A stretch of 32,000 bases of DNA from Candidatus Methylomirabilis oxygeniifera. Lineage in GTDB: Bacteria > Methylomirabilota > Methylomirabilia > Methylomirabilales > Methylomirabilaceae. A program made the position numbers and the translations under genes. Of the stretch, positions 1 to 22,449 are shown one piece after another. The notes below the pieces were generated by a model. The model was not told the DNA's origin and did no database searches. It was given only the letters and a program-made list of their open reading frames with translations. Where the stretch lies: positions 1,680,001 through 1,712,000 of the forward strand of contig FP565575.1 in the NCBI GenBank assembly GCA_000091165.1, given 5' to 3'. Numbering within the stretch: position 1 is the first letter of the stretch; each line of letters opens with the position of its first letter.

Positions 1-1
1 C

Positions 2-877
2 ACTGACGACACTATTGATGCCGAAGACCAGGAGTCTCTCGAATTTGACGCCTCATCCGTCGAGCCGCTCTATCAACTCGATCTGACGGCGTTGATACCG
101 GGCACCATCATCATCGGACAAGGAATTGCACGCATTCGACATGCAAGCGTCGGCGATTCCCTCTTCTTTCTCGCGTTCGACGGCACCGTGTTGGATTTAC
201 GGATCGGCGGTTTTTTGTCCTCCAGATCGGAACTGGTGTCGTCCGATCTCATCTTGACGACCGAGGCGGACTTTCGACGGCTGTTTGGAATCCCTCACGA
301 CGCCGTAACGGACGTTACCGTATCGGTTCGAAACCCGAGAGAGATTCCAACTATTGCCGGGAAGATCGCGCGACTTCTGCCCGATGCCCGGCCCATTACT
401 CGGGACGAAATCCTGAGAACCTACGATTCAATCTTTAATTGGCGCGGGGGAATGATGCTCGTCATCCTGGCCTCCGCCGTACTCGCGTTTGTCATCTTTG
501 CATGGGACAAGGCCTCCGGCTTGAGCGCCGGGGAGAAACAGGAAATCGGCATTCTCAAGGCCATCGGCTGGGAAACCTCGGACATTATCGAGATGAAGTT
601 CTGGGAAGGAGCGGTGGTGTCGCTGACCGCCTTCTTCACCGGGGTCATCCTGGCCTATCTCCACGTCTTCTTTTTCTCGTCGGTGGTGTTTGAGCCGGCC
701 CTCAAAGGATGGTCGACCCTCTACCCGCAATTTCATCTGACTCCATTTATCGACGTCGGACAACTGACCACGCTCTTCTTCCTGACGGTAGTCCCCTATA
801 CCGCCGCCACCATCGTGCCGGTCTGGCGCGCCGCAACAATCGATCCCGATACGGCGATGCGCCGCACAGGGGAGTAA
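2..877 (+). CDS. ABC transporter permease, FtsX/MacB-type (5' end lies outside the window)
   Basis: The frame is open from nt 2 with no stop (TDDTIDAEDQ...), so the listed start at 92 is internal. A soluble (periplasmic-type) domain is followed by the FtsX signature GILKAIGW, hydrophobic helices and an RAATIDPDTAMR tail. Its ATPase gene starts 3 nt downstream. Confidence 0.85.
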   Translation, partial: TDDTIDAEDQESLEFDASSVEPLYQLDLTALIPGTIIIGQGIARIRHASVGDSLFFLAFDGTVLDLRIGGFLSSRSELVSSDLILTTEADFRRLFGIPHDAVTDVTVSVRNPREIPTIAGKIARLLPDARPITRDEILRTYDSIFNWRGGMMLVILASAVLAFVIFAWDKASGLSAGEKQEIGILKAIGWETSDIIEMKFWEGAVVSLTAFFTGVILAYLHVFFFSSVVFEPALKGWSTLYPQFHLTPFIDVGQLTTLFFLTVVPYTAATIVPVWRAATIDPDTAMRRTGE

Positions 878-880
878 CCG

Positions 881-1561
881 GTGATCGAACTGATCAACGT
901 CACAAAAACCTTTAATGCCGGAACGCCGAGCGAATGTTCCGCTTTGAACGGGATTACCTTGACGATCAGCGACAAGATGGCGACGGTACTGGTCGGTCCA
1001 AGCGGGTCCGGCAAAACGACGCTGCTCACCATCATCGGCTGTATGGCAAGACCATCGGCCGGCCGCGTCACGCTCAACGGACGGGAAATTACCTCGCTCC
1101 CGGAACGGTTTCTGACCGAGATTCGACGCAAGACCTTCGGGTTCATTTTTCAGCAGCCGAACCTGATCAAAGGCATCACCGCGCTGGAGAATGTCATGTT
1201 GCCGGCGTACCCGGCCGGAACGGAACACGCGGCGCTCCGGGAACAGGCAATACGACTGCTCCAAGGGCTTCAGCTTTCCGAGAAGGCGGCATCGAAGGTC
1301 GAGTGGCTCTCCGGTGGGGAGGCGCAACGGGTCTCCATCGCCAGGGCGTTGATCAACAATCCGTCCGCCATTATTGCCGACGAGCCGACCGCGCACCTTG
1401 ACACAAGCTTGTCCCGCCGGTTTTTAGAGATTGTGGAGCGGTTCAAGGCGGAGGGGAAAACGATCTTGATGACCAGCCATGATCCGCTGATCTATCAGTC
1501 TCGCGTCGTCGATCGCGTGGTGCGGCTTCGAGATGGAAAGGTCGAAGAGGCAGGAGGATGA
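881..1561 (+). CDS. ABC transporter ATP-binding protein (MacB/LolD-like)
   Basis: Walker A GPSGSGKTT, ABC signature LSGGEAQRVSIARAL, Walker B IIADEPT and H-loop TSHD. The GTG start lies 3 nt after the permease stop. Confidence 0.95.
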   Translation: MIELINVTKTFNAGTPSECSALNGITLTISDKMATVLVGPSGSGKTTLLTIIGCMARPSAGRVTLNGREITSLPERFLTEIRRKTFGFIFQQPNLIKGITALENVMLPAYPAGTEHAALREQAIRLLQGLQLSEKAASKVEWLSGGEAQRVSIARALINNPSAIIADEPTAHLDTSLSRRFLEIVERFKAEGKTILMTSHDPLIYQSRVVDRVVRLRDGKVEEAGG

Positions 1562-2572: not shown

Positions 2573-3106
2573 ATGAGAAAAAGACCGTTCATCGCCTATA
2601 CGGCGCTCGTCCTGATGGCGATCGCGCTGATGACGCTGGCGGCCGTCGACAACGCCGCATCGGCAGACCGTCGACAACGAGGTCTGACCAGGAGAGACAA
2701 GTGCCCGGTGTGCGGCATGTTCGTCTATAAGTACCCGAAATGGGTCGCCAAGATCGAGTTCCAGGACGGCCACGCTCATTTTTACGACGGCGCCAAGGAT
2801 ATGTTTAAACATTATATGAATCTGTCGAAATATACGCCCGGGAGATCGGACCACGAGATCGCGGCCGTCTTTGTCACCGACTATTATGCGGTCGAACTGA
2901 TCGAGGCCAAAACCGCCTTTTACGTCATCGGCAGCGATATCCTGGGCCCGATGGGACACGAACTGATCCCGTTCAAGGATGAAGCCTCGGCGAAGGAGTT
3001 CCTGGAGGACCACAAGGGAACGCGCATTCTGCGATTTGAAGAGGTGACAAAAGAGGTCATCGACGCACTGGACGCGGCCCAACAAGAGAGAGGGGGAAAG
3101 CGATGA
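2573..3106 (+). CDS. nosL: NosL-family protein (putative periplasmic Cu(I) chaperone)
   Basis: N-terminal signal/anchor helix (no lipobox Cys), then CPVCGM (nt 2702-2719), which is the CxxCGM hallmark of NosL. The C-terminal pattern ...IPFKDEASAKEF...HKG is typical of the family. GGGAGGG lies upstream of ATG 2573; the tracked ORF starts at an alternative TTG at 2564. Confidence 0.85.
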   Translation: MRKRPFIAYTALVLMAIALMTLAAVDNAASADRRQRGLTRRDKCPVCGMFVYKYPKWVAKIEFQDGHAHFYDGAKDMFKHYMNLSKYTPGRSDHEIAAVFVTDYYAVELIEAKTAFYVIGSDILGPMGHELIPFKDEASAKEFLEDHKGTRILRFEEVTKEVIDALDAAQQERGGKR

Positions 3107-4479
3107 AGCAGATCTGGGTGTGTATCTTAGTCTGGGCGTGTCTCGGGTCGACTGTCGCGTTTGCGGACGACGCGGGTACAACGACTGCCGGCGAAAGGGA
3201 AGAGTGTCGGATCTGCGGCATGTGGATCGATCAATACCAACGGACCGCAGCGGAGCTGATCTACAAAGACGGTAGAAAAGAACATACCTGCGGAGTCGCC
3301 TGCATGTTCCGCATTCTGGACGAAGAAGGGGTAGACGCCTTTACCTCCATCACCGTTCGCGATTGGAAGACGGGCAATCGGGTGGATGCGCAGGATGCGA
3401 CGTATGTAATCGGAAGCCGCGTCATCCCGGAGATGATTCCGAACATTATTGCGTTCGAAAGCAAGGCCGCCGCTGAGACATTTCAAGCCCAGGAAGGCGG
3501 CGCATTGATCGACCTTGGGAGGGGTCTGCAAATCATCACACCACGCGGTCAGACGGTCCCGTTCCGGCTTCAGACCGCCGTCACAACGGGACGAGGATCG
3601 TTCGGGCTGGGAGCCGGGTTCGGGTACTTGCGAAGGGATGATATCAAGCTCGGATCGGACAGCCGCGATCCGCGCAAGTTTATCAGCAGCCGCGCTCAAC
3701 AACCACGCGCCCCCAGAAGGGTCGAATCGTACGGTCAATCGCTCTTCATTAATTATGGTATCACCGATCGCCTGGCAGTACTGGCGAATCTGCCGTACTT
3801 CGAAAGGGAAACCAGCCGGTTCGAAAAAAATCTGAAGACGGCTGAGATTACGACCATAGACGCCGATGCCGCCGGATTGGGCGATCTCGATCTTCGTTTT
3901 CGCTATAACCTGTGGCGGAATACCATTCAGGATACGTGGGTCACGGCAACATTGACGACAACCATCCCTACCGGGAGATTTAATAAGGCATTTATCGATA
4001 GCCCTGCTTTGCAGTCCGGGGCCGGCGCCCCATCGGTTGGTGGAGGGCTGCTCTTTTCTTACAGTTGGCGAGACCTGTGGTTTCACTCCTCTGCAACATA
4101 TACCGGCAGGCTACGAAACGGTGACGAATACAGGTTCGGCAACGAAGCGGCGGCCGGGGTGGCGGTCCATTATACGCCACGGTATGATGTCATGCTCGGG
4201 ATCGAGGCGGACGCGGTCCATGCTGAAAAAAATGAGTTTAAAGGGGTAACCGTCGGCAACACCGGGGGGACCAGAGTCAATCTTACGTTCGTTGCCGACT
4301 GGAGATTTCTCCTCGCGCTGGGCGGCAATTTTACGTTGCGGGCCGCCATGGGGTTGCCGATCCATGAAGATTTGAACCATCGCACGATCGGACCGAGAGA
4401 GCAGGTCCAGCTCGGTGGCGGCTATTTCGGCAACGTGGCCCTGACCTACGCCACTCGCTTTCCGTTTATTGAGGAGTGA
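3103..4479 (+). CDS. Fusion protein: N-terminal NosL-like domain plus C-terminal outer-membrane beta-barrel (Phenol_MetA_deg/transporter-like)
   Basis: The ATG overlaps the nosL stop (ATGA). Sec signal peptide ...TVAFA|DD. CRICGM lies at nt 3205-3222, followed by ...IAFESKAAAETF..., which is NosL-like. From about residue 150 there is an alternating beta-strand pattern with GLGDLDLRFRY and IPTGRF...LQSGAGAPSVGGGL motifs, typical of small OM barrels of the MetA-pathway family. Confidence 0.8.
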   Translation: MKQIWVCILVWACLGSTVAFADDAGTTTAGEREECRICGMWIDQYQRTAAELIYKDGRKEHTCGVACMFRILDEEGVDAFTSITVRDWKTGNRVDAQDATYVIGSRVIPEMIPNIIAFESKAAAETFQAQEGGALIDLGRGLQIITPRGQTVPFRLQTAVTTGRGSFGLGAGFGYLRRDDIKLGSDSRDPRKFISSRAQQPRAPRRVESYGQSLFINYGITDRLAVLANLPYFERETSRFEKNLKTAEITTIDADAAGLGDLDLRFRYNLWRNTIQDTWVTATLTTTIPTGRFNKAFIDSPALQSGAGAPSVGGGLLFSYSWRDLWFHSSATYTGRLRNGDEYRFGNEAAAGVAVHYTPRYDVMLGIEADAVHAEKNEFKGVTVGNTGGTRVNLTFVADWRFLLALGGNFTLRAAMGLPIHEDLNHRTIGPREQVQLGGGYFGNVALTYATRFPFIEE

Positions 4480-4607
4480 GGCTTATGTCGGCTCCTCCAT
4501 GTGTGTTTCCTACCTCGGACACATATTCAGTTTTTGTAGCATCCGTGAGCACGCATTAGTAGACACCTCTGCCGGAAAGGAGTAGAAAGTGACAGGTCGT
4601 TTCACCT

Positions 4608-4976
4608 GTGTTTCGTAATATCAAAGTGAACGGAGTCTTATCCGTGTCGCTCTCGAATAGGCTAATTCACAAATCTCGGTCGCTCACGCCCATTGCCGTA
4701 TCAGCACTTGGTCTCTATCTGCTGGTCAACGCGTTCCTCATTCTGTGTCTGGTTCATCCTCACAATACTCACCTCCAAGCTCAGGCCGATAGTCATCCCG
4801 TCTCAGTCTGTGCCTGGGTCCACAAAACAGTCGCCTCCCATGTCCCATCATCAGGAATTATCCTGCCCTTGGTGGCGGCCGGGCTACTCGCCTTCCTGCC
4901 ATTGCCGCAACGCAGTCCTGAGATCTTCCCGATCAAGCAGACCGGCCGCTCTCCACCCCTGCTCGCCTTCGTATAA
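4608..4976 (+). CDS. Small His-rich two-helix membrane protein (hypothetical; paralogue of 25559..25945)
   Basis: Architecture is TM helix, His-rich linker (HPHNTH...ADSHP), CAWVH, second hydrophobic helix, then a C-terminal GRSPP motif. The ORF at 25559 has the same architecture. The GTG start is uncertain and I saw no clear RBS. Confidence 0.45.
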   Translation: MFRNIKVNGVLSVSLSNRLIHKSRSLTPIAVSALGLYLLVNAFLILCLVHPHNTHLQAQADSHPVSVCAWVHKTVASHVPSSGIILPLVAAGLLAFLPLPQRSPEIFPIKQTGRSPPLLAFV

Positions 4977-5765
4977 GTCTGTTCACTCAAGCCTCTACCG
5001 GTACGCACCGCAATTCTCTTATTTGAACCACAGCGCCTCGGCCTTTTCGAAGGCGTAGGCAGGTTTTAAGAACGAAGAATGTTGTCGTGGGCGCCTCGGG
5101 CTTAAGCCCAGGCCCGCCTCAGCCCCATTATATGTTTGCCCGCTATCCTCCTGCATAGAGAGGTCGACTACGCGGGAAGGACGAGGGAACTTGAGGTGTC
5201 ATCGTGAACAATACGCACGGCGGAAGATCGCATCGAACCACGAGCCGACGCATTTCCCACGAAAAGAAGGTCCACCCGTCGCCTGACTACTTTGGTGACG
5301 CCCTCCGCATCCTTGACAATGACCTCACGCTCCAGCCACAGCGCGAGCACCTGGTAGCGTTGTGGGGATTGGTGGTTGGCCTGTCGCGCAGGCTTACGCA
5401 GGCCTATGTTGAATGCCAGGATCATCGGGATTCGACTGCAAGCACACATCATTCGAGCACAGTCGATCAAGACATCCACTCCTCCGGACAAAGAGCGATA
5501 AGAACGGGCATGGGAACGATCTGACAGCGCTGCTTCCGCGCTCGCCCGCCTCTTCCTGCCGGGGTCGGGCCGATTCTCAACGGCAGGAATTCCTCCCTCG
5601 AATGCGATGAGCCTCACCGGGACCGCCGTTCCTCTTCCGGCGGTCCCGAGGCTCACCGCAGCAAGCGGAGGATAGCGTGCGGCATCAAGCACTCTGCATG
5701 GTGAAACGCAATACATACGACACACGTAACTACGCAATCGACCTTTTCGAGGGAAGGAGACACGC

Positions 5766-8084
5766 ATGAAACAACGCGAACGTCAACGCACGCGCAGACG
5801 TACAGCGGCCCTTGTGGGGGTGGCCACACTACTCACATGGGGTGCCGTGGCACACGCAGAGGAAGAAAAGAAAACAGATGAGGTGACAACACTCAAGGAG
5901 GTAGTTGTCAGATCTACTGCTCTCAATGACGTCTTTGTGCCGTTGAATGCATCCGTCATCGATCAGACAACACTGCAGTCCATACCGCCGGCCACCAACG
6001 ACACGGCAACCCTTCTGAGAGATGTCCCCGGTGTCAGTCTGTACGGCGCCGGCGGCATTTCCAGCCTGCCGGTGATTCACGGCTTGGCCGACGACCGTCT
6101 GCGCATCAAGGTCGACGGCATGGATCTGATCTCCGCCTGCCCCAATCATATGACCCCGCCGCTTTCCTATATCGATCCGGCCGGCGTGGGGACCCTGAGG
6201 GTGTTCGCCGGTATTGCGCCGGTCAGCGTCGGCGGCGACAGCATCGGCGGCACGATTCTGCTGGAGTCCCCGGCGCCGGTATTCGCCGCACCCGGACAGA
6301 CCCCTCTGCTCACGGGCCATCTCAGCTCGTTTTATCGCAGCAATAACAAGGCGCGCGGCGGCGACTATTCGGCCACGTTCGCGACTGATAACTTCAGCGC
6401 CACTTATAACGGCTCGGTCATTCATGCCGACAACTACACGGCAGGCGGGAACTTCAAACCCGCCGGGCCGGCCGCTGTCGATAAGCCGGGGAACATTCTC
6501 GACGGCGATGAGGTTGGCGCCAGCGCCTTTAAGGCCGAAAACCACAACCTGGCCTTTGCGCTGAAACAAGGCAACCACCTATTCGAAGCGAAGTTTGGTT
6601 ACCAATATATCCCTGAACAGGGCTTTCCCAACCAACGCATGGATATGACCACCAATTCCGAGTGGCGTCAGAACCTGCACTACCTCGGCCAGTTCGGATG
6701 GGGCTCGCTGGATATCCGCGGCTATCATGAAATTGTCAACCACAAAATGGATTTCAGTGACGACAAACAATTTCTCTACGGAGCACCGCCGTTCGTCGCA
6801 CCGGGAATGCCGATGAAGACCGACAGCAGGAACATCGGCGGCTCGGTCAAGACCAACATCGACCTGACCAAGGAGCACACCCTCCGCGTCGGGGGTGAAT
6901 ATCAATATTACCGGCTGCACGACTGGTGGCCGCCGTCCCCCAAAGTCCTGCCGCCCGGCTACACATACGGCGGAATGGCGCCGGACACCTTCCTGAACAT
7001 CAATGACGGCACGCGTACGCGAGGGGCGGTATTTGCCGAATGGGAGGCGCGCCTGCATCCGCAGTGGCTGACGCTGTTGGGCGCACGATATGAACACGTC
7101 AAGATGACTGCCGACGACGTGCACGGCTACAACAGCGTCATGCCAAGTTACCAGTTTGCGGCAGAGGTCTTCAATGCCCGCGATCACGATCGCACCGACC
7201 ACAACTGGGACCTCACTGCGCTGACCCGCTATACGCCGACACCGATGCTGAGCCTCGAATTTGGCTACGCGCATAAGACCCGATCGCCGAACCTGTATGA
7301 ACGCTACCCCTGGTCCACGAACTCCATGGCGATGATCATGAATAACTTCGTTGGCGACGGCAACGGCTATGTCGGTAATCTGGATCTGGACCCGGAAAAG
7401 GCTCACACTATCAGCGGCACTGTCGACTGGCATGCCACGAATCGTACCTGGGAGTTTAAGGTCACGCCATACTACACCCACGTCACCGACTACATCGATG
7501 CGAAGCGTTGCCTGGGAAGCGGGAGCGGCATGAATTCGATGTGTGGCGGCCCGGCGAATAATACCGCAGTCAACAAGTTCGTCCTGCTTCAGTACGTCAA
7601 CCAGACGGCCCGGCTCTGGGGTGTCGACGTCTCCACCCATATGCCGTTGGCAAAGATCAACGGCATCGGCGAATTCAACCTTGCGGGACTGTTCAACTAC
7701 ACGAACGGCAAGAACCGCACGACCGGCGACGATCTCTACAACATCATGCCGCTCAACGGGAAGTTGTCGCTACGACATCAACTCGGCGGCTTCGACAGCG
7801 GTCTTGAGGTGGTCATGGCGAAGGGCAAGAACAACGTCTCTGATGTACGGAACGAAATCAAGACATCGGGTTATGTCCTCGCCAATCTGCGCGCTGGCTA
7901 TAGCTGGAAGATGATGCGACTCGATTTCGGGATCGATAATGTGTTCGACAAATACTACTCTTTACCGCTCGGCGGCGCCTATACCGGTCAAGGCGCAACC
8001 ATGGGCCTCAACTCAATCCCGTGGGGGACGGCCGTCCCCGGTATGGGACGTTCGTACAACACCAGACTGACCTATAGGTTCTGA
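5766..8084 (+). CDS. TonB-dependent outer-membrane receptor, OprC/NosA-like (copper)
   Basis: AGGAGA RBS, signal peptide, a plug domain with TonB-box-like EVVVRS, and a terminal beta-barrel ending ...TRLTYRF. CPNHM (CxxxM, nt 6138-6152) and HKM (HxM, nt 6741-6749) match the copper-site signature described for OprC. Confidence 0.93.
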   Translation: MKQRERQRTRRRTAALVGVATLLTWGAVAHAEEEKKTDEVTTLKEVVVRSTALNDVFVPLNASVIDQTTLQSIPPATNDTATLLRDVPGVSLYGAGGISSLPVIHGLADDRLRIKVDGMDLISACPNHMTPPLSYIDPAGVGTLRVFAGIAPVSVGGDSIGGTILLESPAPVFAAPGQTPLLTGHLSSFYRSNNKARGGDYSATFATDNFSATYNGSVIHADNYTAGGNFKPAGPAAVDKPGNILDGDEVGASAFKAENHNLAFALKQGNHLFEAKFGYQYIPEQGFPNQRMDMTTNSEWRQNLHYLGQFGWGSLDIRGYHEIVNHKMDFSDDKQFLYGAPPFVAPGMPMKTDSRNIGGSVKTNIDLTKEHTLRVGGEYQYYRLHDWWPPSPKVLPPGYTYGGMAPDTFLNINDGTRTRGAVFAEWEARLHPQWLTLLGARYEHVKMTADDVHGYNSVMPSYQFAAEVFNARDHDRTDHNWDLTALTRYTPTPMLSLEFGYAHKTRSPNLYERYPWSTNSMAMIMNNFVGDGNGYVGNLDLDPEKAHTISGTVDWHATNRTWEFKVTPYYTHVTDYIDAKRCLGSGSGMNSMCGGPANNTAVNKFVLLQYVNQTARLWGVDVSTHMPLAKINGIGEFNLAGLFNYTNGKNRTTGDDLYNIMPLNGKLSLRHQLGGFDSGLEVVMAKGKNNVSDVRNEIKTSGYVLANLRAGYSWKMMRLDFGIDNVFDKYYSLPLGGAYTGQGATMGLNSIPWGTAVPGMGRSYNTRLTYRF

Positions 8085-8141
8085 TTGGGCGCATCCGCCA
8101 AAACAGAGGTTCGGACACCTACACCACACAAGGAGAGAAAC

Positions 8142-9008
8142 ATGCGACGAGTACGAACCATCGCCTTTGCGGCCCTTCTGGCCGGGGCTTTCATCTCTGC
8201 CGATGCCTGGGCTTTTCCACACGCCAATATCCGATCGAAGGACACCCTTGATGCGTACACCGGCAGGAATTATCAGGAGGGGACCAGCGCGGTCCTGAGT
8301 ATTAACATAGGCCACGGTTGCACCCATTCAGGGGAGTCATATACGACCCGGCTGGTCACGGCGCTCTTCCCCAACAGTTCCAACCCGAATTTGAGCGGCA
8401 TCGCCTATACCACAGACGGCACAACGAACTATGAGGGCAACGCATTGTACGGAATCAAGCCCGTGGTCGATCAGAACTGGAAACAGATCCAGCCGATTAC
8501 AGGCACTGTCCCGACCTACTACAATCACGGCGCGAAAAGCACGGACGTTCGCGCCGTTCACTGGGAGTGGGGATACATCCCGGATAATTTCGCGGGGTAT
8601 GCGAATGTCAGCGTCAGTTTCCCGAAGTTTCAACCGAATACGTGCTACAACAAGATTCAAGTCGATATACCCGTGATACAGTACTGCCAGGCGGATTCGA
8701 AACACGCAGAGGATCATATGTGGAAACGGGACAGGATGAAGGCAAAAGGCGACTTTCATAGGGTCTATGCGTGGATGAAGGAGGCTACATCCGTGTTCCC
8801 GACCGAGACGATTGTCGCCCCCGGCTATGTCGCGTCTTTGACCATTGTCAGGAACCTCACCACCAACCCCTTGCCGGCATCCTGTGGAGGAACAGGACAG
8901 ACGATCGAGCTGTATCCGACAGCAGCCGAAATCGACATGTATTTGCCGCCCCTTGATGGCGACATCTCTGCCGGCAGCGGAAGCGGTGGCGGCGATCATA
9001 TGCATTAG
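8142..9008 (+). CDS. Secreted protein, tentatively YcnI/DUF1775-like (copper-binding fold), with a Gly/Ser linker and DHMH tail
   Basis: AGGAGA lies 6 nt before ATG 8142; the tracked TTG at 8085 is unlikely. Signal peptide ...SADAWA. The stretch HANI...(30 aa)...INIGHGCTHSGESYTTRLVTALFP resembles the DUF1775 H...RVxHGCxGSxTT block. The C-terminus is GSGSGGGDHMH. Confidence 0.75.
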   Translation: MRRVRTIAFAALLAGAFISADAWAFPHANIRSKDTLDAYTGRNYQEGTSAVLSINIGHGCTHSGESYTTRLVTALFPNSSNPNLSGIAYTTDGTTNYEGNALYGIKPVVDQNWKQIQPITGTVPTYYNHGAKSTDVRAVHWEWGYIPDNFAGYANVSVSFPKFQPNTCYNKIQVDIPVIQYCQADSKHAEDHMWKRDRMKAKGDFHRVYAWMKEATSVFPTETIVAPGYVASLTIVRNLTTNPLPASCGGTGQTIELYPTAAEIDMYLPPLDGDISAGSGSGGGDHMH

Positions 9009-9211: not shown

Positions 9212-9550
9212 ATGAGGCGAAGGATTGCAGCAGCAGCGTTATTCCTGGGGGTGGTGACTTTCGTAGGAACTGGTATCTCCTGGGCAGCAAAGTCGCATAT
9301 GGTTGAGGCGACCGAGCACACCCAGGCAGCCGCCGAGCACGGCAAAGCGGGGCATGCCGATGTAGCAGCGACACACGCGACGGCGGCCCTGCAACATGCC
9401 GAGGCCGCTCAGAAGGAGAAGGCCGACCCCCATAAGGAAGCGGCCATCAAGGGATTGAAGGAGGCCGTTGAGCACGGCAAGGCTGGACACGCCGATGTCG
9501 CCGGCAAGGCCGCTGCAGGGGCACTCGAACACCTCAAAGCGGTAAAGTAA
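9212..9550 (+). CDS. Small periplasmic His-rich metal-binding protein, SmbP-like
   Basis: GAGGAGGA RBS before ATG 9212; the tracked start at 9113 gives a non-signal N-terminus. Signal peptide MRRRIAAAALFLGVVTFVGTGISWA. The mature ~87 aa is all-helical Ala/His/Lys/Glu with 10 His and a duplicated block EHGKAGHADVA. It resembles Nitrosomonas SmbP (as I recall it, ...HGKEGH...EHL...). Confidence 0.8.
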   Translation: MRRRIAAAALFLGVVTFVGTGISWAAKSHMVEATEHTQAAAEHGKAGHADVAATHATAALQHAEAAQKEKADPHKEAAIKGLKEAVEHGKAGHADVAGKAAAGALEHLKAVK

Positions 9551-9575
9551 GAACGCCTCTCTACTTAACGAATGA

Positions 9576-9613
9576 AGACAATAGGCAGGAAGATTTTTTC
9601 CTGCCTATTGTCT
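9576..9613. terminator. Bidirectional intrinsic terminator between the convergent SmbP-like gene and metH
   Basis: A perfect 14-bp stem, AGACAATAGGCAGG / CCTGCCTATTGTCT, encloses a 10-nt T-rich loop and is flanked by T-runs. It sits 26 nt after the + gene stop and 33 nt after the metH stop. Confidence 0.7.
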
Positions 9614-9645
9614 TTCTTGATCCTTCAGCCTACACACCTGAATCG

Positions 9646-12600
9646 TTACGTATCCACATCATAATTCAGATTCGCTGCAAGCCACCGCTCCACCGTCCGC
9701 ACATCCATCCGCTTGCGCTGGGCATAGTCCAGCACCTGATCCCGTCCGATCTTACCAACCGCAAAATAGGTCGCCTCGCGGTGGGCAAAGTAGAGCCCGC
9801 TCACCGAGCTGGTCGGAACCATCGCGCAACTATCCGTCAGGCGAATACCGGCGTTGCGCTCCACCTGAAGAAGATCGAAGAGCGTACGTTTCTCGGAGTG
9901 ATCCGGACAGGCCGGATAGCCGGGAGCGGGACGGATCCCGCGATACCGCTCTCGGATCAGATCCTCATTGGTAAGCTGTTCTCCGACTCCATACCCCCAC
10001 TCTGCTCGAACTCGGCGATGCAGGCATTCCGCGAAGGCCTCCGCCAGGCGATCGGCTAACGCTTTGGCCAGAATAGAGGTATAGTCATCATGGGAGGCTT
10101 CATATTGCGCGCAGAGGGCATCGAGGCCATGGCCGGTTGTCACGGCAAACGCTCCGAGATAGTCCGGACGTCCGGGTAATCTGGGCGCGATAAAATCGGC
10201 CAGCGCCAGGTTACATTGCCCCTCAGCTTTAGGCAGTTGCTGGCGAAGCGTATGAAATGTTGCCAGCACCTGCGACCGCGAATCGTCGGTATAGAGTTCG
10301 ATATCGTCGTCCACGCTGTTCGCCGGGAAGAACCCATAGACCGCCCTGGCAATAAGACGCCGATCACGGACGATCTGCTCCAGCAGATGTTGGCCATCAT
10401 CGAACAGTTCCCTGGCCTTGGGCTTCTGCAAGATCTCAGGGTACCGGCCCCGCATCTCCCACGCATGAAAGAATGGGGTCCAATCGATATACGGTACAAT
10501 CTGGTCGAGTGGAAACTCGTCCAGCATGCGGATGCCGATAGAAGATGGCGTGGGAATGTCCGCCGCGCGCCAATCAAGAAGGAGTTTCCGATCGCGCGCC
10601 TGGGTAAGCGTCAGCAGCGCTCTCGGTTCGCGGTCCTCATACGCCTGCCGCACCCGCTCCTGGTCCAGTCGATTATTTTCGATGAACGCCGATCGCTGGT
10701 CCCGGCTTGAGAGATGGCCGGCAACCACTACAGCCCGCGAGGCATCCGCGACGTGGACCACCGGCTGGTCATACAGCGGGGCGATCTTGACAGCCGTGTG
10801 GGTTCGGCTGGTGGTGGCACCGCCGATGAGGAGCGGAATCTTCAGCCCTTCCCGCATCATCTCCCGCGCGACGTGCATCATTTCGTTAAGCGACGGCGTA
10901 ATCAGCCCGCTCAGTCCGATCATGTCCACCTGCTGTTCTCGGGCGGTCTTGAGGATCGTGTCGCACGGCGCCATCACCCCCAGATCGATGACCTCATAGT
11001 CATTACATCCGAGCACGACCCCGACAATATTCTTGCCAATATCGTGTACGTCTCCCTTTACGGTCGCCATCAGGACCTTCCGCTGCGTGCGCTTACGGTC
11101 GGATGTCAGGCGCTCGACTTCAATAAAGGGGAGAAGGTAGGCCACTGCCTTCTTCATAACGCGGGCGGTTTTGACTACCTGCGGCAGAAACATCTTCCCG
11201 GAGCCGAACAGCTCCCCAACGAGGTTCATGCCGGCCATTAACGGACCCTCAATGACCTGAAGCGGCCTGTCGTACCGCTGCCGCGCCTCTTCCACATCCG
11301 ACTCAATATAGTCGGTGATCCCCTTGACCAGCGCATGCGTAAGCCGTTCCTCAACCGATCCCTGTCGCCAAGCTTCATCCTTCACGACCGCTCGCTCCTG
11401 CGCTTTCATGGTCTTGGCAAACTCGACCAACCGATCGGTCGCATCGGGACGGCGGTTCAGCAGCACATCCTCAACTACTTCAAGTAAATCCTTAGTAATA
11501 TCAGCATAAACCGTTAATTGTCCGGCGTTGACAATTCCCATATCCAGACCAGCATGAACGGCATGATACAGAAATGCCGAGTGCATCGCCTCACGAACGG
11601 CATTGTTCCCGCGAAACGAGAACGACACATTACTGACACCACCACTGACCTTGCAGTACGGCAGGTTGGCTTTGATCCAACGGGTCGCCTCAATAAAATC
11701 AACCGCATAGCGGTTATGCTCCTCGAGCCCGGTCGCCACCGTCAGAATGTTCGGATCGAAGATGATGTCCTGCGGCGGCATTCCGACCGTCCCGGTCAGG
11801 ATCCGGTATGCGCGGGCGCAGATCTCGGTCTTACGCTCCAGCGTATCGGCCTGGCCACGCTCATCAAACGCCATGACCACGACCGCAGCCCCATACCGTT
11901 TGATGAGCCTGGCGCGTTGGATGAATGTCTCTTCGCCCTCTTTAAGGCTGATGGAGTTCACTACCGGCTTACCCTGGGCGCACTTCAGCCCCGCCTCGAT
12001 CACAGACCAGTCGGAGCTGTCGATCATGACGGGCACCCGAGCAATGTCGGGCTCGCAGGCAACCAGGTTCAGGAACTGGATCATCGCCGCTTTCGCGTCA
12101 AGCATGGCCTCATCCATGTTGACATCGATGATCTGGGCGCCGCCCTCGACCTGCTGCCGCGCAATGGACGCGGCCGCCTCGTACTCGCCGCTCCGAATGA
12201 GCTTGGCAAATGCCGCGGATCCGGCGATATTGGTCCGCTCCCCGATATTGACGAAACCCACCTCCGGACAAATCGTCACCGGCTCAAGGCCGCTTAATCG
12301 GGTATGCGGCTGAGGGTGAGGGGGAACGCGTGGCTGATACTCCCGCACCGCCTTCGCAATGGCTCGAATGTGATCCGGGGTGCTGCCGCAGCAGCCGCCG
12401 ACGATGTTCAGCCAGCCGCTCTTTGCAAAGTCGCCGAGGTCCGCAGCCATGATCGCCGGTGTTTCATCGAAGCCTCCGAACGCGTTGGGCAGGCCGGCGT
12501 TCGGATAGCAACTGAGAAAAACTGAAGCAATCTGAGCAAGCTCCTCAAGATACGGGCGCATCTGCTTTGCCCCGAAGGCGCAGTTGATCCCTACGCTGAA

Positions 12601-13329
12601 CAAGGGCATATGGGCGATGGAATTCCAAAAGGCTTCCACCGTTTGCCCAGACAGTGTGCGTCCGCTGCGATCCGCAATGGTTACCGAGACCATGATCGGC
12701 ACACGCCGGCCGACCTCCTCGAAATACTGATCGATGGCAAACAGCGCAGCCTTACAGTTCAGCGTATCGAAGACCGTCTCAACCAACAGCAGATCGACTC
12801 CGCCGTCCAGCAGGCCGCGCACTTGCTCGGTATAGGCAGCGACCAACCGATCGAAGGTCACGGCGCGGAAGGCAGGATTGTGGATATCGGAGGGCATCGA
12901 CGCTGTGCGATTCGTCGGACCGATCGACCCGGCCACGAAGCGCGGATGGTTCGGGTCCTTCGCCATCGTACTCTCAACGGCGCTACGCGCGGCTCGTGCA
13001 CCGGAGAGGTTCAGGTCATAAGCCAGCGATTCCAGCCGATAATCGGCCATCGAGATCGACGTGGAATTGAATGTGTTGGTCTCGATGATATCGGCCCCGG
13101 CGTCCAGATACTGGCAATGAATCGCCTCGATGATGGCCGGCTGCGTGATGGCCAGCAGATCATTGCACCCCTTGAGGTCGCAGGGGTGGTCGGCGAACTT
13201 TTGCCCACGGAAGTCTGCTTCCGTAAGGTTGTGCATTTGAATCATTGTGCCCATCGCGCCGTCAAGAATGACGATGCGATGCCGCAACATCTGTTCAAGT
13301 TCAGCGAATCGACCGAACGTGTCAGTCAT
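9646..13329 (-). CDS. metH: Cobalamin-dependent methionine synthase
   Basis: 1227 aa covering all MetH modules: Hcy-binding (N-terminal ILDGAMGT...GGCCGSTP), pterin-binding, the B12-binding DxHxxG motif (GDVHDIGKN), and the C-terminal AdoMet activation domain. Confidence 0.98.
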
Positions 13330-13786: not shown

Positions 13787-15298
13787 ATGAACATGACCCG
13801 ATTCGTTATCGCGTGCGTTGCCGTGATCCTCTTGAGTCTCCACACCTCGGCGTGGGCCGACAAACTCATAGAGCTTGAGCAGACCTTCCAGGCGCAGCAG
13901 CAGTCGTTGCAGCAGTTGCAGCAGGAGATGCACCGACTGCGGCAAGAGCGGTTCGCACAACAGGACGAGGTAACCAGGCGTGTGATGGAGGTAGAGCAGA
14001 AGGCCGCCGAGGTCGCGGCATCGTCTATGCTCACCGGGTATGAGCCGGTACCAGGGAAGGGATTCTTCATGAGGTCGGCCGATGGCCAATTTGAACTGAG
14101 GGTGCGCGGGTTCATCCAGACTTGGATGCAAGTTGAAGGGGCGCGAAACGAAGAAGATTTCCCGGGTGTCGTCGACGGTCAGGATCTCACGAAGGCGGGA
14201 CTGGCGCGGCACGACCCGAGCACATTCCGACTCCGCCGCACCCGAATCATCATAAGCGGCCAGATCTATAAGGACTTCGGCTTTCTTATCGAGCCTGAGT
14301 TTACCGGTTCTACGCGGCTCGAGGAGACTTGGCTCAATTACACCTACGCCCCCTGGGCGAAGGTGACCGTGGGACAGTACAAGGCCCGATTCGGTCTTGA
14401 GATGCTCACCTCCTCTCGGGACCTGGACTTTGCTGAGCGGGCAGTCATCTCCAAGGCGCTTTCCCCGGAATATCAGATCGGCGCCACCGTCGAGGGCAAT
14501 CTGAAGCTCGCTACCCTGCCGGTCTACTACGGAGTAGGAATCTATAACGGCTGCGGCCGGGTCGATCAGTGTTCCGGCGGCATCGATAACGACGGCGATA
14601 AAGAGTTCACCGGTCGAGTGACCTTTTCGCCTCCGATGCCCTTCGGCAATCTCACTATCGGCCTGAATGCCGATCACCGTACCTTTCGAGTCGTGAGGGG
14701 GAAAGGCGCGGCCGATCCGGGCGGCGCTACGACACCGGTCGGTAGCGGCTCCCCGTTCCACCGCTTCAACCCGGTTGGTCCGACCGGCGTCAAGCTGGCC
14801 GGCAACGGCGAAGGCGGAACGCAGAACGGCTTCCTGATCAACGGCAACCGCGTGACCGGAGGCGGCGACATCGTCTTCGACATCTATCCGTTTATCATTA
14901 AAGGTGAGTACACCTACGCCTCCCAGGAGCGTGACGGATTAGGCGCCGGCAGCACGAATCTCGACAATCTCATCATGCAGGGTGGGTACGGATCGATCGG
15001 CTATTGGCTCTTCGGTAACAAGCTCAAGGGCCTTCAGGCCATCGGCCGCTATGAGCATGTGCGAATCGACGACAACAAGGGCAAATTTACTGCGCCGGTC
15101 ACAGTCGCCAATGAACGACCGATGGAGCTTCGTTCCGGCACCTTCGGTCTGAACTGGTTTATCAATTCCAACGTCCGTCTGCGGGGCAACTACATTCTCA
15201 CCGACCTCAGACCAGGCCGAAATGCCGTCGGGATGAGCAATAGCACGCACGGCGAAATTGCCCACCAAGGGATCGCTGAATTCCAAGTCCAGTTCTAA
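13787..15298 (+). CDS. Outer-membrane porin, OprO/OprP (Porin_O_P) family, with an N-terminal coiled coil
   Basis: GGAGGA RBS, signal peptide ...TSAWA, and a Gln/Leu heptad stretch (LEQTFQAQQQSLQQLQQEMHRLRQE). The family motif FRLRRTRIIISG is present, with beta-strand alternation and a terminal aromatic ...AEFQVQF. Confidence 0.85.
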   Translation: MNMTRFVIACVAVILLSLHTSAWADKLIELEQTFQAQQQSLQQLQQEMHRLRQERFAQQDEVTRRVMEVEQKAAEVAASSMLTGYEPVPGKGFFMRSADGQFELRVRGFIQTWMQVEGARNEEDFPGVVDGQDLTKAGLARHDPSTFRLRRTRIIISGQIYKDFGFLIEPEFTGSTRLEETWLNYTYAPWAKVTVGQYKARFGLEMLTSSRDLDFAERAVISKALSPEYQIGATVEGNLKLATLPVYYGVGIYNGCGRVDQCSGGIDNDGDKEFTGRVTFSPPMPFGNLTIGLNADHRTFRVVRGKGAADPGGATTPVGSGSPFHRFNPVGPTGVKLAGNGEGGTQNGFLINGNRVTGGGDIVFDIYPFIIKGEYTYASQERDGLGAGSTNLDNLIMQGGYGSIGYWLFGNKLKGLQAIGRYEHVRIDDNKGKFTAPVTVANERPMELRSGTFGLNWFINSNVRLRGNYILTDLRPGRNAVGMSNSTHGEIAHQGIAEFQVQF

Positions 15299-18356: not shown

Positions 18357-18522
18357 CGACCAGCCTATCGGGCTGCTCTTCTGGCTCGGTCCGGGCGTGA
18401 GTGTGCCTCGCTTGTGCGGTATAAACTTGAGTGGACGGACCGATAAAAACGCTACAAGAAATTGAAAAGGCGGCAGATTTCGTATGTGGACTACGATCTG
18501 CTAGTCGGGAAACCACTACTTG

Positions 18523-20892
18523 ATGCTAACCGAAGCCGATACCTGCCGAAAGTACGTCCTGCCGAAGCTTTACGCCGCTGGCTGGAGTGACGATCAAATC
18601 AGCGAGCAGAAGTATTTCACCGACGGACGCATTGTCGTGACCGGTCGGAGACACTTCAGGAAACCGGGGAAGAAGGCGGATTACCTGCTCAATTATCGGC
18701 CTGACTACCGGCTTGCTGTGGTTGAGGCCAAGGTCTCCTATAAGAACCCCGCCGACGGCCTTCAGCAGGCAATGGAGTATGCGGAAATCCTCGGGCTCAG
18801 ATTTGCCTATTCGACGAACGGCCATGGAATCGTAGAGCACGACTACACCACAGGTGGGCAGCAGGTCCTGGACATCTTTCCCTCTCCTGATGAACTGTGG
18901 CGTCGGGTTCGTGCGGCCGAAGGCCTGGCCGACGACAAGGCAGCCGAAGACCTGCTGTTTCCGTTTAACCGCGAACTTCGCAATCCAGACGGTTCCATCA
19001 AGACTCCCCGGTATTTCCAGGAGATCGCGATCCATCGAGCCGTGCAGGCCGTCCTGCAGGGCAAACCTCGCATCCTGATCACCATGGCCACGGGGACCGG
19101 CAAGACCTTTGTGGCCGTCCAGATCGTTTGGAAACTCTGGAAGACGGGACATAAAGGGCGGATCCTGTATCTGGTTGATCGGAACATCCTCGTAGATCAG
19201 CCTCTTGTCCGTGAGTTCAACATCTTTGGCGGTGCCGTCTGGAAGATCCAAGGAGAGGCGAAGAAGGGGCGAGAGATCTACTTCGCGCTCTACCAGGCTC
19301 TGGCAGAGGACGAGTCGCGGCTGGGTCTCTATAAGGAATACCCGCCGGATTACTTCGACCTGATCATCGTGGACGAGTGTCACCGTGGGAGCGCGACGGA
19401 TCAGTCCCGCTGGCGCCGAATCCTGGAGTACTTTGATGCGGCCACTCAGATCGGGATGACAGCTACACCCCGGCGCGAGGAGACCCGGGACACCTACGGG
19501 TACTTCGGCAATCCCATCTATACCTATCCATTGAGTCAGGGCATCGAGGATGGGTTCCTGGCACCCTATCGCGTGCATCGCATCGTTCCCAGCGTGGACG
19601 CCACCGGGTGGCGGCCGGAGCGGGACCAACTTGACCGCTTTGGACGCGAGATCCCGAACGGCGTGTACGAGACCAAAGATTTCGAGCGTGTAGTCTCCCT
19701 GCTCAGCCGGACCGAGGTCGTGGCCCAGCATCTGACCGCCTATCTGAAAAGAACAGACCGATTCGCTAAGACCATGGTGTTTTGCGTGGACCAGGAGCAC
19801 GCTGAAGACATGCGTGCCGCGCTGCACAAGGCCAATGAAGACCTTACGCAGCAATACCCACACTACGTGGCGCGCGTAACGGTCGATGAAGGGAAGGTGG
19901 GTCGGGGCCATCTGGATGACTTCGTGGATCCCGAGCGAGACATGCCGGTGATCCTGACGACGTCTAAGCTCCTCAATACCGGAGTGGACGCCCCCACGTG
20001 CCGAAACATTGTCCTGTTCAAGCCTATCGGCTCCATCGTGGAGTTCAAGCAGATCATCGGGCGAGGCACCCGCCTCTATCCGGACAAGGATAAGCTGTGG
20101 TTCACGATCCTGGACTACGCCGGGGCTACCCGCCTCTTCGCCGATCCCAACTTTGATGGGGAGCCTGAACGGATTACTGAGGAAAGGATTTACCCGTCTG
20201 GCGAAGAGCAAGGGTCACCCGTGATAGTCGGAGAAGGCCCTTCGTATGGAGGAGAAGAAGACGAAGACGTGCCCGTGAGCGACTGGCAGGAGCAGCCGCA
20301 CAGGAAGTACTATGTAGACGGGGTCGAGGTGCGGATCACCGCAGAGATAGTGTATGAGCTGGACAGTTCAGGGAAGCAGCAACGAGTCGTCAAGTACACG
20401 GACTATACAGCCGAACAAGTGCGCCGGCTGTACCCCACCCCCGCTGAACTTCGGACAGAGTGGATGGATGCAGAACACCGGGGGGCCATTCAGCAGGCCC
20501 TCGCTGAACGCGGCATTGACTTCTCCGCCCTGGTCGAAGCCACAAACCAGCCAGATGCGGATCCGTTCGATCTTCTCATCCACGTTGCGTGGAACGCTCC
20601 CCTCCGAACCAGGCGGGAGCGCGCCGAGAGTGTGTCCGGAGGGAAAGGAAAGACTTTTGGGACCTGTACACGCCTCAGGCTCGCGGCATTCTCAATGATC
20701 TGCTGGATAAATACACAGACTATGGTGTCACGCAGCTCGATGATCTCCAGATTCTTGAAGTTCCACCTCTCTCCAAGCGCGGAACCCCTATGGAAATCGC
20801 CGGTTTCTTTGGAGGAGTCGATCACCTGCGATCTGCAGTTGCTGAGCTTCAGTCTCTCTTGTACAGATAGGCATAGTAATACAAATAGGTAA
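18523..20892 (+). CDS. hsdR: Type I restriction enzyme R subunit (EcoEI/EcoAI-like), with its C-terminal domain frameshifted near nt 20635
   Basis: HSDR_N nuclease N-terminus (LTEADTCRKYVLPKL), helicase motifs MATGTGKT, DECHRGS and TATPRR. After ...PLRTRRERAESV the frame yields low-complexity nonsense until 20892, while the homologous sequence continues in another frame (see 20589..20870). Confidence 0.9.
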   Translation: MLTEADTCRKYVLPKLYAAGWSDDQISEQKYFTDGRIVVTGRRHFRKPGKKADYLLNYRPDYRLAVVEAKVSYKNPADGLQQAMEYAEILGLRFAYSTNGHGIVEHDYTTGGQQVLDIFPSPDELWRRVRAAEGLADDKAAEDLLFPFNRELRNPDGSIKTPRYFQEIAIHRAVQAVLQGKPRILITMATGTGKTFVAVQIVWKLWKTGHKGRILYLVDRNILVDQPLVREFNIFGGAVWKIQGEAKKGREIYFALYQALAEDESRLGLYKEYPPDYFDLIIVDECHRGSATDQSRWRRILEYFDAATQIGMTATPRREETRDTYGYFGNPIYTYPLSQGIEDGFLAPYRVHRIVPSVDATGWRPERDQLDRFGREIPNGVYETKDFERVVSLLSRTEVVAQHLTAYLKRTDRFAKTMVFCVDQEHAEDMRAALHKANEDLTQQYPHYVARVTVDEGKVGRGHLDDFVDPERDMPVILTTSKLLNTGVDAPTCRNIVLFKPIGSIVEFKQIIGRGTRLYPDKDKLWFTILDYAGATRLFADPNFDGEPERITEERIYPSGEEQGSPVIVGEGPSYGGEEDEDVPVSDWQEQPHRKYYVDGVEVRITAEIVYELDSSGKQQRVVKYTDYTAEQVRRLYPTPAELRTEWMDAEHRGAIQQALAERGIDFSALVEATNQPDADPFDLLIHVAWNAPLRTRRERAESVSGGKGKTFGTCTRLRLAAFSMICWINTQTMVSRSSMISRFLKFHLSPSAEPLWKSPVSLEESITCDLQLLSFSLSCTDRHSNTNR
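20589..20870 (+). pseudogene. hsdR: Displaced C-terminal segment of hsdR (second half of the EcoEI_R_C-type domain) in the -1 frame
   Basis: From nt 20637 this frame reads RRERKDFWDLYTPQARGILNDLLDKYTDYGVTQLDDLQILEVPPLSKRGTPMEIAGFFGG...LQSLLYR*. That is the expected continuation of type IB HsdR C-termini. Confidence 0.75.
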
Positions 20893-20962
20893 AATGCAAT
20901 ATGACCTTATATAATATATTATAGTTATAATTGATAAAGGTAATATATAATGATACATTACC
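20871..20962 (+). promoter_or_regulatory. AT-rich junction and likely abiE promoter/operator region
   Basis: About 90 bp that is visibly AT-dominated within a GC-rich context. It contains a perfect 14-bp palindrome TATAATATATTATA (20910-20923), which includes TATAAT hexamers. It also contains the inverted repeat GGTAAT-N12-ATTACC (20939-20962), which abuts the abiEi start. Confidence 0.5.
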
Positions 20963-20965
20963 TTG

Positions 20966-22440: not shown

Positions 22441-22449
22441 GGTAAGAGT

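Follow-up and report, generated by a model that had tools for sequence, protein, structure and literature searches.

The window analyzed here, a 32,000-nucleotide stretch of the genome of the methane-oxidizing bacterium Candidatus Methylomirabilis oxygeniifera (contig FP565575.1, positions 1,680,001 to 1,712,000 of the forward strand), encodes a 458-residue protein in which a NosL-type metallochaperone domain and an outer membrane (OM) β-barrel of the COG4313/FapF type lie on one polypeptide. Its gene closes a tightly packed operon, in which it is preceded by genes for an FtsX permease, an ATP-binding cassette (ABC) ATPase, a 331-residue membrane protein, and a small, soluble NosL; this operon, of five to six genes, is conserved. 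An earlier reading of the window from its letters alone (the original prediction) had described the fusion and the NosL gene directly upstream, both of which we found, but did not mention the operon. We propose, giving the idea about an even chance of being right, that the fusion would act as the OM station of a periplasmic copper relay leading inward to cuproenzymes other than N2O reductase.

Table 1. Coordinates of the fusion gene, its protein segments, and the upstream genes of the operon (window numbering; aa, amino acid residues).
Feature	Position	Strand	Basis
FtsX-type (MacB-like) ABC permease, 3' part (414 aa in full; gene starts upstream of the window)	1..877	+	Pfam; full gene in relative L088
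ABC ATPase, MacB/LolD/FtsE type	881..1561	+	Pfam/NCBIfam
331-aa polytopic membrane protein (TM331), eight predicted transmembrane helices	1558..2553	+	AlphaFold2 (AF2); conservation
Small NosL, 177 aa from ATG 2573 (CBE69009.1, "putative nosL family protein")	2573..3106	+	Pfam (E = 2e-35)
NosL::barrel fusion gene	3103..4479	+	Open reading frame; exact database match; 105 full-length homolog clusters
Sec signal peptide, aa 1-21, MKQIWVCILVWACLGSTVAFA, followed by DD	3103..3165	+	Read from sequence; family comparison
NosL-type metallochaperone domain, aa 30-145	3190..3537	+	Pfam; PDB profile matches; Foldseek
Conserved linker, putative lumen plug, aa 146-201	3538..3705	+	Conservation; DSSP; position matching COG4313/FapF lumen segments
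OM β-barrel, COG4313/FapF (Phenol_MetA_deg) type, aa 202-453	3706..4461	+	Pfam; AF2; Foldseek; motifs; hydrophobic alternation
C-terminal tail PFIEE and stop codon, variable (0 to 8 residues) in the family	4462..4479	+	Conservation

A NosL domain joined to an outer membrane β-barrel

The fusion is encoded by a single open reading frame (ORF) with an ATG start, which matches the earlier description exactly, including the motifs quoted there: CRICGM (residues 35 to 40), GLGDLDLRFRY (257 to 267), IPTGRF (288 to 293), SGAGAPSVGGGL (305 to 316), and the C-terminal RFPFIEE. The protein is on deposit as CBE69010.1 (UniProt D5MGX9) from Ca. Methylomirabilis oxyfera, labelled "uncharacterized protein"; its orthologs are entered as "nitrous oxide reductase accessory protein NosL" or "transporter, partial", and others as "hypothetical" or "NosL". 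An artificial join of two genes by a sequencing or assembly error, which the original prediction had named as a way in which the fusion might fail, is ruled out by conservation of the fusion across clusters and genomes. A search of 5.8 billion proteins gave 105 full-length clusters of 437 to 522 residues, 34 to 88% identical, most of them with both Pfam domains, and when one genome per species was scanned, 107 genomes encoded the fused architecture; an independent M. oxyfera assembly, in addition, matches the window at 100% identity across 12.5 kb. Carriers include NC10 bacteria, a Nitrospira defluvii metagenome-assembled genome (MAG), about 30 Methylococcales (in culture, Methylomicrobium lacus, Methylobacter tundripaludum, Methylocaldum sp., and Methylomonas rivi), Nitrosomonas communis, Desulfobulbales, Geobacteraceae, and Thermodesulfovibrionales. 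The family is concentrated among organisms that depend on copper enzymes, namely methanotrophs, ammonia oxidizers, and nitrite oxidizers.

The barrel alone (residues 146 to 458) was used as the query in an exhaustive phmmer search of 1.8 billion representatives. The strong matches (E ≤ 1e-30) were all proteins of about 430 to 480 residues that aligned from about residue 145, or fragments cut by contig ends; stand-alone barrels of 300 to 340 residues were reached only at E ≥ 1e-12, with 24 to 35% identity. Because the stand-alone barrels match so distantly, we conclude from these sequence comparisons that the fused form is a distinct and old clade.

The N-terminal domain was assigned to NosL by Pfam (PF05573 at residues 30 to 137; E = 2.9e-19, 70.2 bits against a cut-off of 24) and gave profile matches to two solved NosL chains, 7OG7 (E = 1e-12) and 7OSF (E = 4e-10). 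It adopts the NosL/MerB-like fold in the AF2 model; Foldseek aligned it to 7OG7 with E = 8e-6, a TM-score (TMt) of 0.63, a root mean square deviation of 3.1 Å over 122 columns, and 28% identity. In NosL from S. denitrificans, Zn is bound by Cys59, Cys88, and Asp92, Cu(I) by Met64 and Met145, and Cys62 is bridging (PMC8457098). In the 7OG7 profile alignment Cys59, Cys62, Met64, Cys88, Asp92, and Met145 align to C35, C38, M40, C63, C67, and M111 of the fusion, so that C38, M40, and M111 are the predicted Cu(I) ligands and C35, C63, and C67 the predicted structural Zn ligands. Five of these, C35, C38, M40, C63, and M111, are invariant across 49 diverse homologs, and position 67 is Cys in 43 of the 49 and Asp in 6; Zn ligands are known to differ among NosL proteins (PMC8457098).

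The signal peptide does not specify a lipoprotein. VWAC (residues 10 to 13, nucleotides 3130 to 3141) falls outside the PROSITE lipobox pattern and is followed by a signal peptidase I site between AFA and DD; most family members have a signal peptide ending in A-x-A about 10 residues ahead of CxxCGM, and a lipobox-like motif is found in just 8 of 49 relatives. Signal peptides with the lipobox-like LSAC or LGAC occur in a Nitrospira-like subclade (P0005, P0006, P0008, P0011, P0013, P0015, P0029, and P0042), where the motif may be a relic of lipoprotein NosL ancestry or a sign of dual anchoring.

The fusion shares with the NosL proteins of nos clusters (S. denitrificans 7OG7, P. stutzeri 7OSF, and A. 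cycloclastes 2HPU) the fold, the PF05573 match, and the six Zn/Cu(I) ligand positions, and it resembles them in OM location and in being paired with an ABC machine. It differs in having a covalent β-barrel in place of the N-terminal lipid, a host without nosZDFY, an ABC partner of the FtsX/MacB type rather than NosFY (ABC-2), no NosD, and a second, soluble NosL alongside. No nos genes lie within the window, and linkage of the fusion to nos genes was found only in one distant relative (locus L003).

For the C-terminal domain the Pfam match is marginal (Phenol_MetA_deg, PF13557, at residues 246 to 370; E = 3.2e-5, 24.5 bits against a cut-off of 22), and the same family is carried by most homologs. 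A phmmer search of PDB sequences with the barrel alone gave no match, and a profile search gave only a faint match to FapF (E = 0.07). The AF2 model, built from a 49-sequence alignment, has a mean pLDDT of 88.7 and a pTM of 0.80, with low confidence confined to residues 15 to 29 and the last three; the pLDDT of 71 to 87 in the linker, together with the pTM, suggests that the two domains are fixed relative to each other and not floppily tethered. A Foldseek comparison of the barrel with the PDB identified FapF (E = 1.3e-12, TMt 0.69) and the COG4313 channel Pput2725 (4RL8; E = 2e-11, TMt 0.75), as well as NanC (TMt 0.69), 14-stranded FadL and OmpG (0.3 to 0.47), and, weakly, EstA (0.25). Pfam, AF2, and Foldseek thus agree with the original prediction that a NosL domain and a barrel of the MetA/COG4313 type share one polypeptide, and the C-terminal region models as a barrel, where a failure to do so had been named as grounds for refutation.

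The conserved cluster of COG4313 channels consists of an Asp in loop L2, Pro-Thr-Gly-x-Tyr in L3, and an Asn in L4 (PMC4493636), and in FapF the PTG motif lies within the β5-β6 extracellular loop (PMC5557850). The fusion has D261 in L2, P289-T290-G291-x-F293 in L3, and N339 in L4, all invariant, and the GD, PTG, and LQxG motifs are common to the fused clade and the stand-alone barrels. From these motifs and the TM-scores we infer a 12-stranded barrel running from about residue 202 to 452. The structure prediction that had been suggested as a check bears out the barrel fold; the DSSP string by itself gives 13 to 14 strand segments, which speaks against 12. A 14-stranded register was rejected: it would place the conserved extracellular PTG loop in the periplasm, the segment 427 to 438, a loop hairpin in the 12-strand register, is missing from some members, and the TM-scores prefer 12. 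At the C-terminal β-signal, R452 is 92% and F453 82% conserved, and some members finish at ...RRF, so the ending that had seemed slightly atypical for an OM protein is merely a short tail past a conserved aromatic residue.

The barrel interior is also conserved. By hydrophobic alternation, W326, H328, H356, E368, and D370 face the lumen; all five are invariant, and three of them, W326, H356, and D370, occur in the fused clade only. The linker consists of a coil (residues 146 to 165), a Gly-rich strand (166 to 188), and a short helix (190 to 196) by DSSP of the AF2 model, with P147, G149, T151, P153, R155, A159, and V160 conserved in the coil, where the mean top-residue frequency (0.70) exceeds that of the NosL domain (0.65) and of the barrel (0.59). 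Because the linker is the most conserved segment, a role as plug or gate is likelier than that of a passive tether; by analogy with COG4313 and FapF, its approximately 55 residues probably fold into the barrel lumen. Invariant linker and lumen residues, several of them clade specific, indicate that the interior of the barrel has been under selection. In the stand-alone COG4313-type barrels nearest to the fusion (P0254, P0260, P0262, P0267, P0268, P0275, P0306, and P0331), a conserved motif, C-[DGPA]-S-x-x-C, directly follows the signal peptide, in the "plug" segment that aligns with the linker of the fused clade; the motif may form a disulfide or a small metal site.

Among characterized channels, the fusion resembles the COG4313/Phenol_MetA_deg group (Pput2725, TcpY, and SphA) in having Pput2725 as its best structural match, in its Pfam match, the GD/PTGx[YF]/Asn cluster, and an N-terminal segment before strand 1. 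Known members stand alone at about 270 to 340 residues and are implicated in the uptake of hydrophobic compounds; in the fusion the N-terminal segment is longer, at about 55 conserved residues, and follows a metal-binding domain of 115 residues, the three lumen residues named above are clade specific, and the genomic context is metal related, not catabolic. FapF (5O65), the top Foldseek match, has a layout like that proposed for the fusion, with a periplasmic N-terminal domain, a linker, a lumen plug, and a 12-stranded barrel with PTG; its substrate is an unfolded polypeptide, it belongs to the fap operon, and there is no sequence relationship past the faint barrel match. A FapF-type secretion channel was rejected as an identification, since FapF has a trimeric coiled coil and a helical plug, whereas the fusion has a NosL domain and a coil/strand linker, with no fap genes in the window.

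A conserved operon with a small NosL and an ABC module

The genes of the operon overlap by ATGA at the ABC/331-residue junction and again where the small NosL stops and the fusion starts, and a ribosome binding site precedes the fusion gene; the second overlap indicates translational coupling of the two NosL-containing products. The permease and ATPase match PF02687 and PF00005, and the closest NCBIfam models are FtsE, LolD, and MacB, all under their cut-offs. The periplasmic domain of the FtsX permease has no conserved Cys, His, or Met, which would suit a mechanical role. No membrane-fusion adaptor or TolC-type exit duct was found in the operon of the window or in those of three relatives (L001, L087, and L088).

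The 331-residue protein, TM331, belongs to a family of more than 6,000 homolog clusters, all without annotation. It gave no Pfam or NCBIfam match even at E = 10, and its AF2 model (pLDDT 69) gave no fold match in a Foldseek search of the PDB (best E = 0.35). Across modules diverged to 36% identity, M87, C88, C168, C169, H250, H251, C252, and C255 are invariant, and by the positive-inside rule these residues would lie in three loops facing the periplasm. The small NosL has invariant C47, C50, M52, D75, D79, and M130 (numbered from TTG 2564); it is 24% identical to the fused domain and keeps the Cu(I) trio, with an Asp/Asp pair replacing C63/C67.

The colinear module FtsX-ABC-TM331-NosL-fusion recurs in a relative at 86% identity (L001), in the Nitrospira MAG, in about 30 Methylococcales, and in Nitrosomonas. 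In Methylococcus sp. Mc7 (L087) the order is kept, with a thioredoxin-like gene inserted before a 501-residue fusion. At 33% identity (L003) the module partners occur in permuted order and adjoin nosZ-nosD-nosF-nosL-nosY. Of the 42 genome loci flanked on either side by 5 kb or more, 22 have the ABC and 331-residue genes along with the fusion, one more has the permease and the 331-residue gene without a detected ATPase, and a separate NosL gene lies nearby in 28.

Placed beside the NosDFY-NosL system, the module has in common an OM-tethered NosL and an inner membrane ABC complex; the NosDFY ATPase is thought to drive periplasmic conformational change and not transmembrane transport. L003, the distant relative, carries both systems side by side. 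The fusion module lacks the NosD β-helix and the ABC-2 permease, adds an eight-helix Cys/His-rich membrane protein, and would serve a target enzyme other than NosZ. An apparent match from M. capsulatus, the "ABC transporter in CRC 3" that copper starvation induces, was considered and rejected; it is ZnuABC-like and so a different system.

Several neighbors of these modules deserve mention. An ORF of about 102 to 108 residues without a family lies directly upstream of the FtsX permease in four divergent modules (L088, 7784 to 8092; L087, 5744 to 6064; L002, 396 to 704; L003, 11391 to 11717), at a site just outside the window, and its product may be a sixth conserved module member. Upstream of the Methylococcus module, a DsbD-like membrane protein is fused to a cupredoxin domain (L087, 4146 to 5453); the inserted thioredoxin/AhpC-TSA-like gene there (9531 to 10073) lies between the small NosL and the fusion, and a similar thioredoxin gene stands beside the L003 module. 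Desulfobulbales-type loci without an ABC module often have, directly upstream of the fusion, genes for a histidine kinase and for a response regulator that is short (receiver and Fis-type helix-turn-helix), as in L062, L071, and L006. An Nramp transporter gene lies upstream of the fusion in L056, and MutY lies downstream in L056 and L006. In a groundwater deltaproteobacterium (L005/L009, 11464 to 21401) the genes that come after the fusion encode two small NosL proteins, one stand-alone Phenol_MetA_deg barrel, and DUF3842, and then CooT, a TonB receptor, and an ABC importer, which are taken up below.

A possible copper relay and its alternatives

In its canonical form NosL is an OM lipoprotein serving N2O reductase, for which it delivers Cu(I) to the ABC complex NosDFY (PMC8457098). 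The M. oxyfera genome was reported to be without nosDFYZ (PMC3198195), which indicates that its NosL modules serve something other than N2O reductase. In the relay that we propose, the fusion would be exported by Sec, its signal peptide would be cleaved, and the C-terminal approximately 250 residues would insert as the barrel, which would let copper in or out under the control of the conserved plug. The fused NosL domain would capture copper crossing the barrel in the Cu(I) state and give it to the soluble NosL translated together with it; from there it would reach an inner membrane complex of the Cys/His-rich TM331 and the MacB-type ABC transporter, in which conformational changes on the periplasmic side would be powered by ATP hydrolysis, as the analogy with NosDFY-NosL suggests. 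Its most plausible destination would be particulate methane monooxygenase (pMMO), along with other cuproenzymes of the periplasm or the membranes, and the relay would probably run when copper is scarce. The functional suggestion of the original prediction, in which a Cu(I) module sits where a pore opens into the periplasm and hands off to the soluble NosL, is consistent with the data.

Such a relay would have the NosL domain on the periplasmic side. FapF's N-terminal domain was shown experimentally to be periplasmic (PMC5557850), and the N terminus of the COG4313 protein Pput2725 enters the lumen from the periplasmic side (PMC4493636). A SPOR (peptidoglycan-binding) domain, which must be periplasmic, occupies the equivalent N-terminal position on another barrel of the COG4313/FapF type (P0292, 558 residues, with a Phenol_MetA_deg barrel). 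Given these precedents for N-terminal modules on the same barrel type, we take the fused NosL domain to be periplasmic, directly beneath the barrel; the thioredoxin-like and DsbD-like genes in or near the Methylococcus module fit Cys-based periplasmic sites. The same evidence makes it very improbable that the protein is autotransporter-like, with the linker threading the 12-stranded barrel and the NosL domain outside, capturing environmental copper. The order of an N-terminal passenger-like domain, a conserved linker, and a C-terminal 12-stranded barrel would suit that arrangement; COG4313/FapF barrels have been called autotransporter-like (PMC4493636, PMC5557850), EstA is among the fold matches, and by motif-anchored parity the strand 166 to 188 runs antiparallel to β1, with residue 166 close to the lumen's extracellular end. 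The periplasm would, however, also suit a Cys-thiolate Zn/Cu(I) site and a partner paralog that is periplasmic. A type Va autotransporter was rejected, as there is no Pfam autotransporter match and no helix, hence no helical linker, in residues 146 to 188, and the EstA match is weak.

Several points weigh against the inward relay. In the literature searched, metal ion transport is known for no COG4313 or FapF member, COG4313 proteins carrying hydrophobic compounds and FapF polypeptides. About 14 of the 42 loci, mainly from Desulfobulbales, have the fusion without any module gene within 5 to 10 kb. One deltaproteobacterial neighborhood (L005/L009) is nickel flavored, and efflux or resistance genes stand in some others: Cation_efflux and Metal_resist upstream of the module in L088, and a CzcCBA-like operon (CzcB, a resistance-nodulation-division pump, and OEP) beside the lone gene in L006. 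ABC systems of the MacB/FtsX type act on periplasmic substrates and usually expel them. Finally, nosL was reported as "not expressed" in normal M. oxyfera culture (PMC3198195), which disfavors a housekeeping role and is compatible with conditional expression. The efflux genes and the habits of MacB-type systems make export a real alternative, if an unlikely one: the soluble NosL would gather periplasmic Cu(I), the ABC complex would energize its transfer, and the fused NosL would receive it for expulsion through the barrel. That FapF, the closest barrel, is a secretion channel (PMC5557850) speaks for this, and silence in normal culture fits a stress-induced system. On the other side stand the enrichment of the family in hosts of high copper demand, the adjacency of L003 to nosZ-nosDFLY maturation genes, the uptake-type genes (TonB-dependent receptor, Zip, and CopD) beside other loci, and an operon without an adaptor or TolC-like partner; NosL is, moreover, known from review as a delivery chaperone that is important at low copper. 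We favor inward delivery because of this host range, the linkage to nos and uptake-type genes, and the role of NosL at low copper.

It is also unlikely that nothing crosses the barrel at all and that it simply substitutes for the NosL lipid anchor at the inner face of the OM. The window protein and most members have no lipobox, the lipobox-like Cys kept by one subclade hints at lipoprotein NosL ancestry, and the crystal structures of COG4313 and FapF are of occluded barrels (PMC4493636, PMC5557850). A barrel of about 300 residues would, however, be a costly anchor; its family is made up of channels (PMC4493636, PMC5557850), and the invariant linker and lumen residues described above, several of them found only in the fused clade, argue for more than anchoring. 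There is, finally, a slim chance that the cargo of the module is not copper and instead is Ni, Zn, or some other soft metal. The L005/L009 neighborhood has the nickel chaperone CooT, a NikA/Opp-like ABC importer (a NikA-like SBP_bac_5 binding protein and an Opp/Nik-type permease), and a TonB receptor; the Nramp gene adjoins the fusion in L056, FeoABC lies near it in L087, and the solved NosL binds Zn too (PMC8457098). Against this, the Cys/Met/Met trio that binds Cu(I) in the solved NosL is invariant here, and host range and nos-cluster linkage indicate copper.

More tentatively, and leaning against it ourselves, we suggest that the whole gene set (the approximately 105-residue protein, FtsX, ABC, the eight-helix protein, NosL, and NosL::barrel) might form an unrecognized ATP-driven, envelope-spanning system for copper acquisition and delivery, in which the NosL domain would gate a channel through the plug and Cu(I) would be relayed from NosL to NosL to a thiolate-rich inner membrane acceptor, supplying pMMO, ammonia monooxygenase, and other cuproenzymes in methane, ammonia, and nitrite oxidizers. 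The fusion with its module offers a concrete candidate pathway by which copper may cross the OM to reach periplasmic and membrane cuproenzymes. A recent review lists only three OM copper routes, namely porins, TonB-dependent receptors, and chalkophores; the fusion would add a fourth. The TonB-dependent copper receptors NosA and OprC are likewise OM proteins for copper acquisition with Cys/Met ligands; they are 22-stranded, TonB-energized barrels that hold a plug domain inside and have their metal site facing the extracellular side, and they are unrelated to the fusion in sequence and fold. The proposal would also give NosL-type chaperones a role beyond N2O reduction, M. oxyfera being without nosZ, and the COG4313/FapF family its first metal-related role.

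No description of the fusion or of the gene module was found in the literature searched. Both the protein and its architecture are already in databases, where, judging from the entries, they have gone unrecognized and misnamed, and a new role in copper trafficking is plausible. The carriers (NC10, Methylococcales, Nitrosomonas, and Nitrospira) run copper-dependent steps of the methane and nitrogen cycles, and the label "nitrous oxide reductase accessory protein" misleads metagenomic inventories of the nitrogen cycle.

Downstream genes and other features of the window

Just 3' of the fusion, a small ORF (4608 to 4976, + strand) encodes 122 residues from a GTG start (110 residues in L088 and L002); the product is hydrophobic, with a His/Cys-rich stretch, HPHNTHLQAQADSHPVSVCAWVH, and has no Pfam match. 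Its position is kept in two close relatives. The 1.3-kb gap in which it lies (4480 to 5765) showed no promoter or terminator signal above chance, and an Rfam scan of the whole window gave no match, the gap included, and detected no cobalamin riboswitch. A TonB-dependent receptor follows (5766 to 8084, + strand), for which heme/hemoglobin-type models are the nearest and the TonB-copper model is a partial match, all under cut-offs, and then a 307-residue protein without a family (8085 to 9008, + strand); in L001 the pair is followed by small metal-binding protein (SMBP) genes. These two genes were considered as module members and rejected, since they are syntenic in close relatives only.

Farther along, the window encodes a 1,227-residue B12-dependent methionine synthase, MetH (9646 to 13329, − strand), and a phosphate-selective porin O/P homolog (13787 to 15298, + strand). 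A type I restriction-modification system occupies 18520 to 25151 (+ strand; HsdR, 18520 to 20892; HsdM, 22450 to 23961; HsdS, 23958 to 25151), with an AbiEi/AbiEii toxin-antitoxin pair (20963 to 22440) inserted between hsdR and hsdM.

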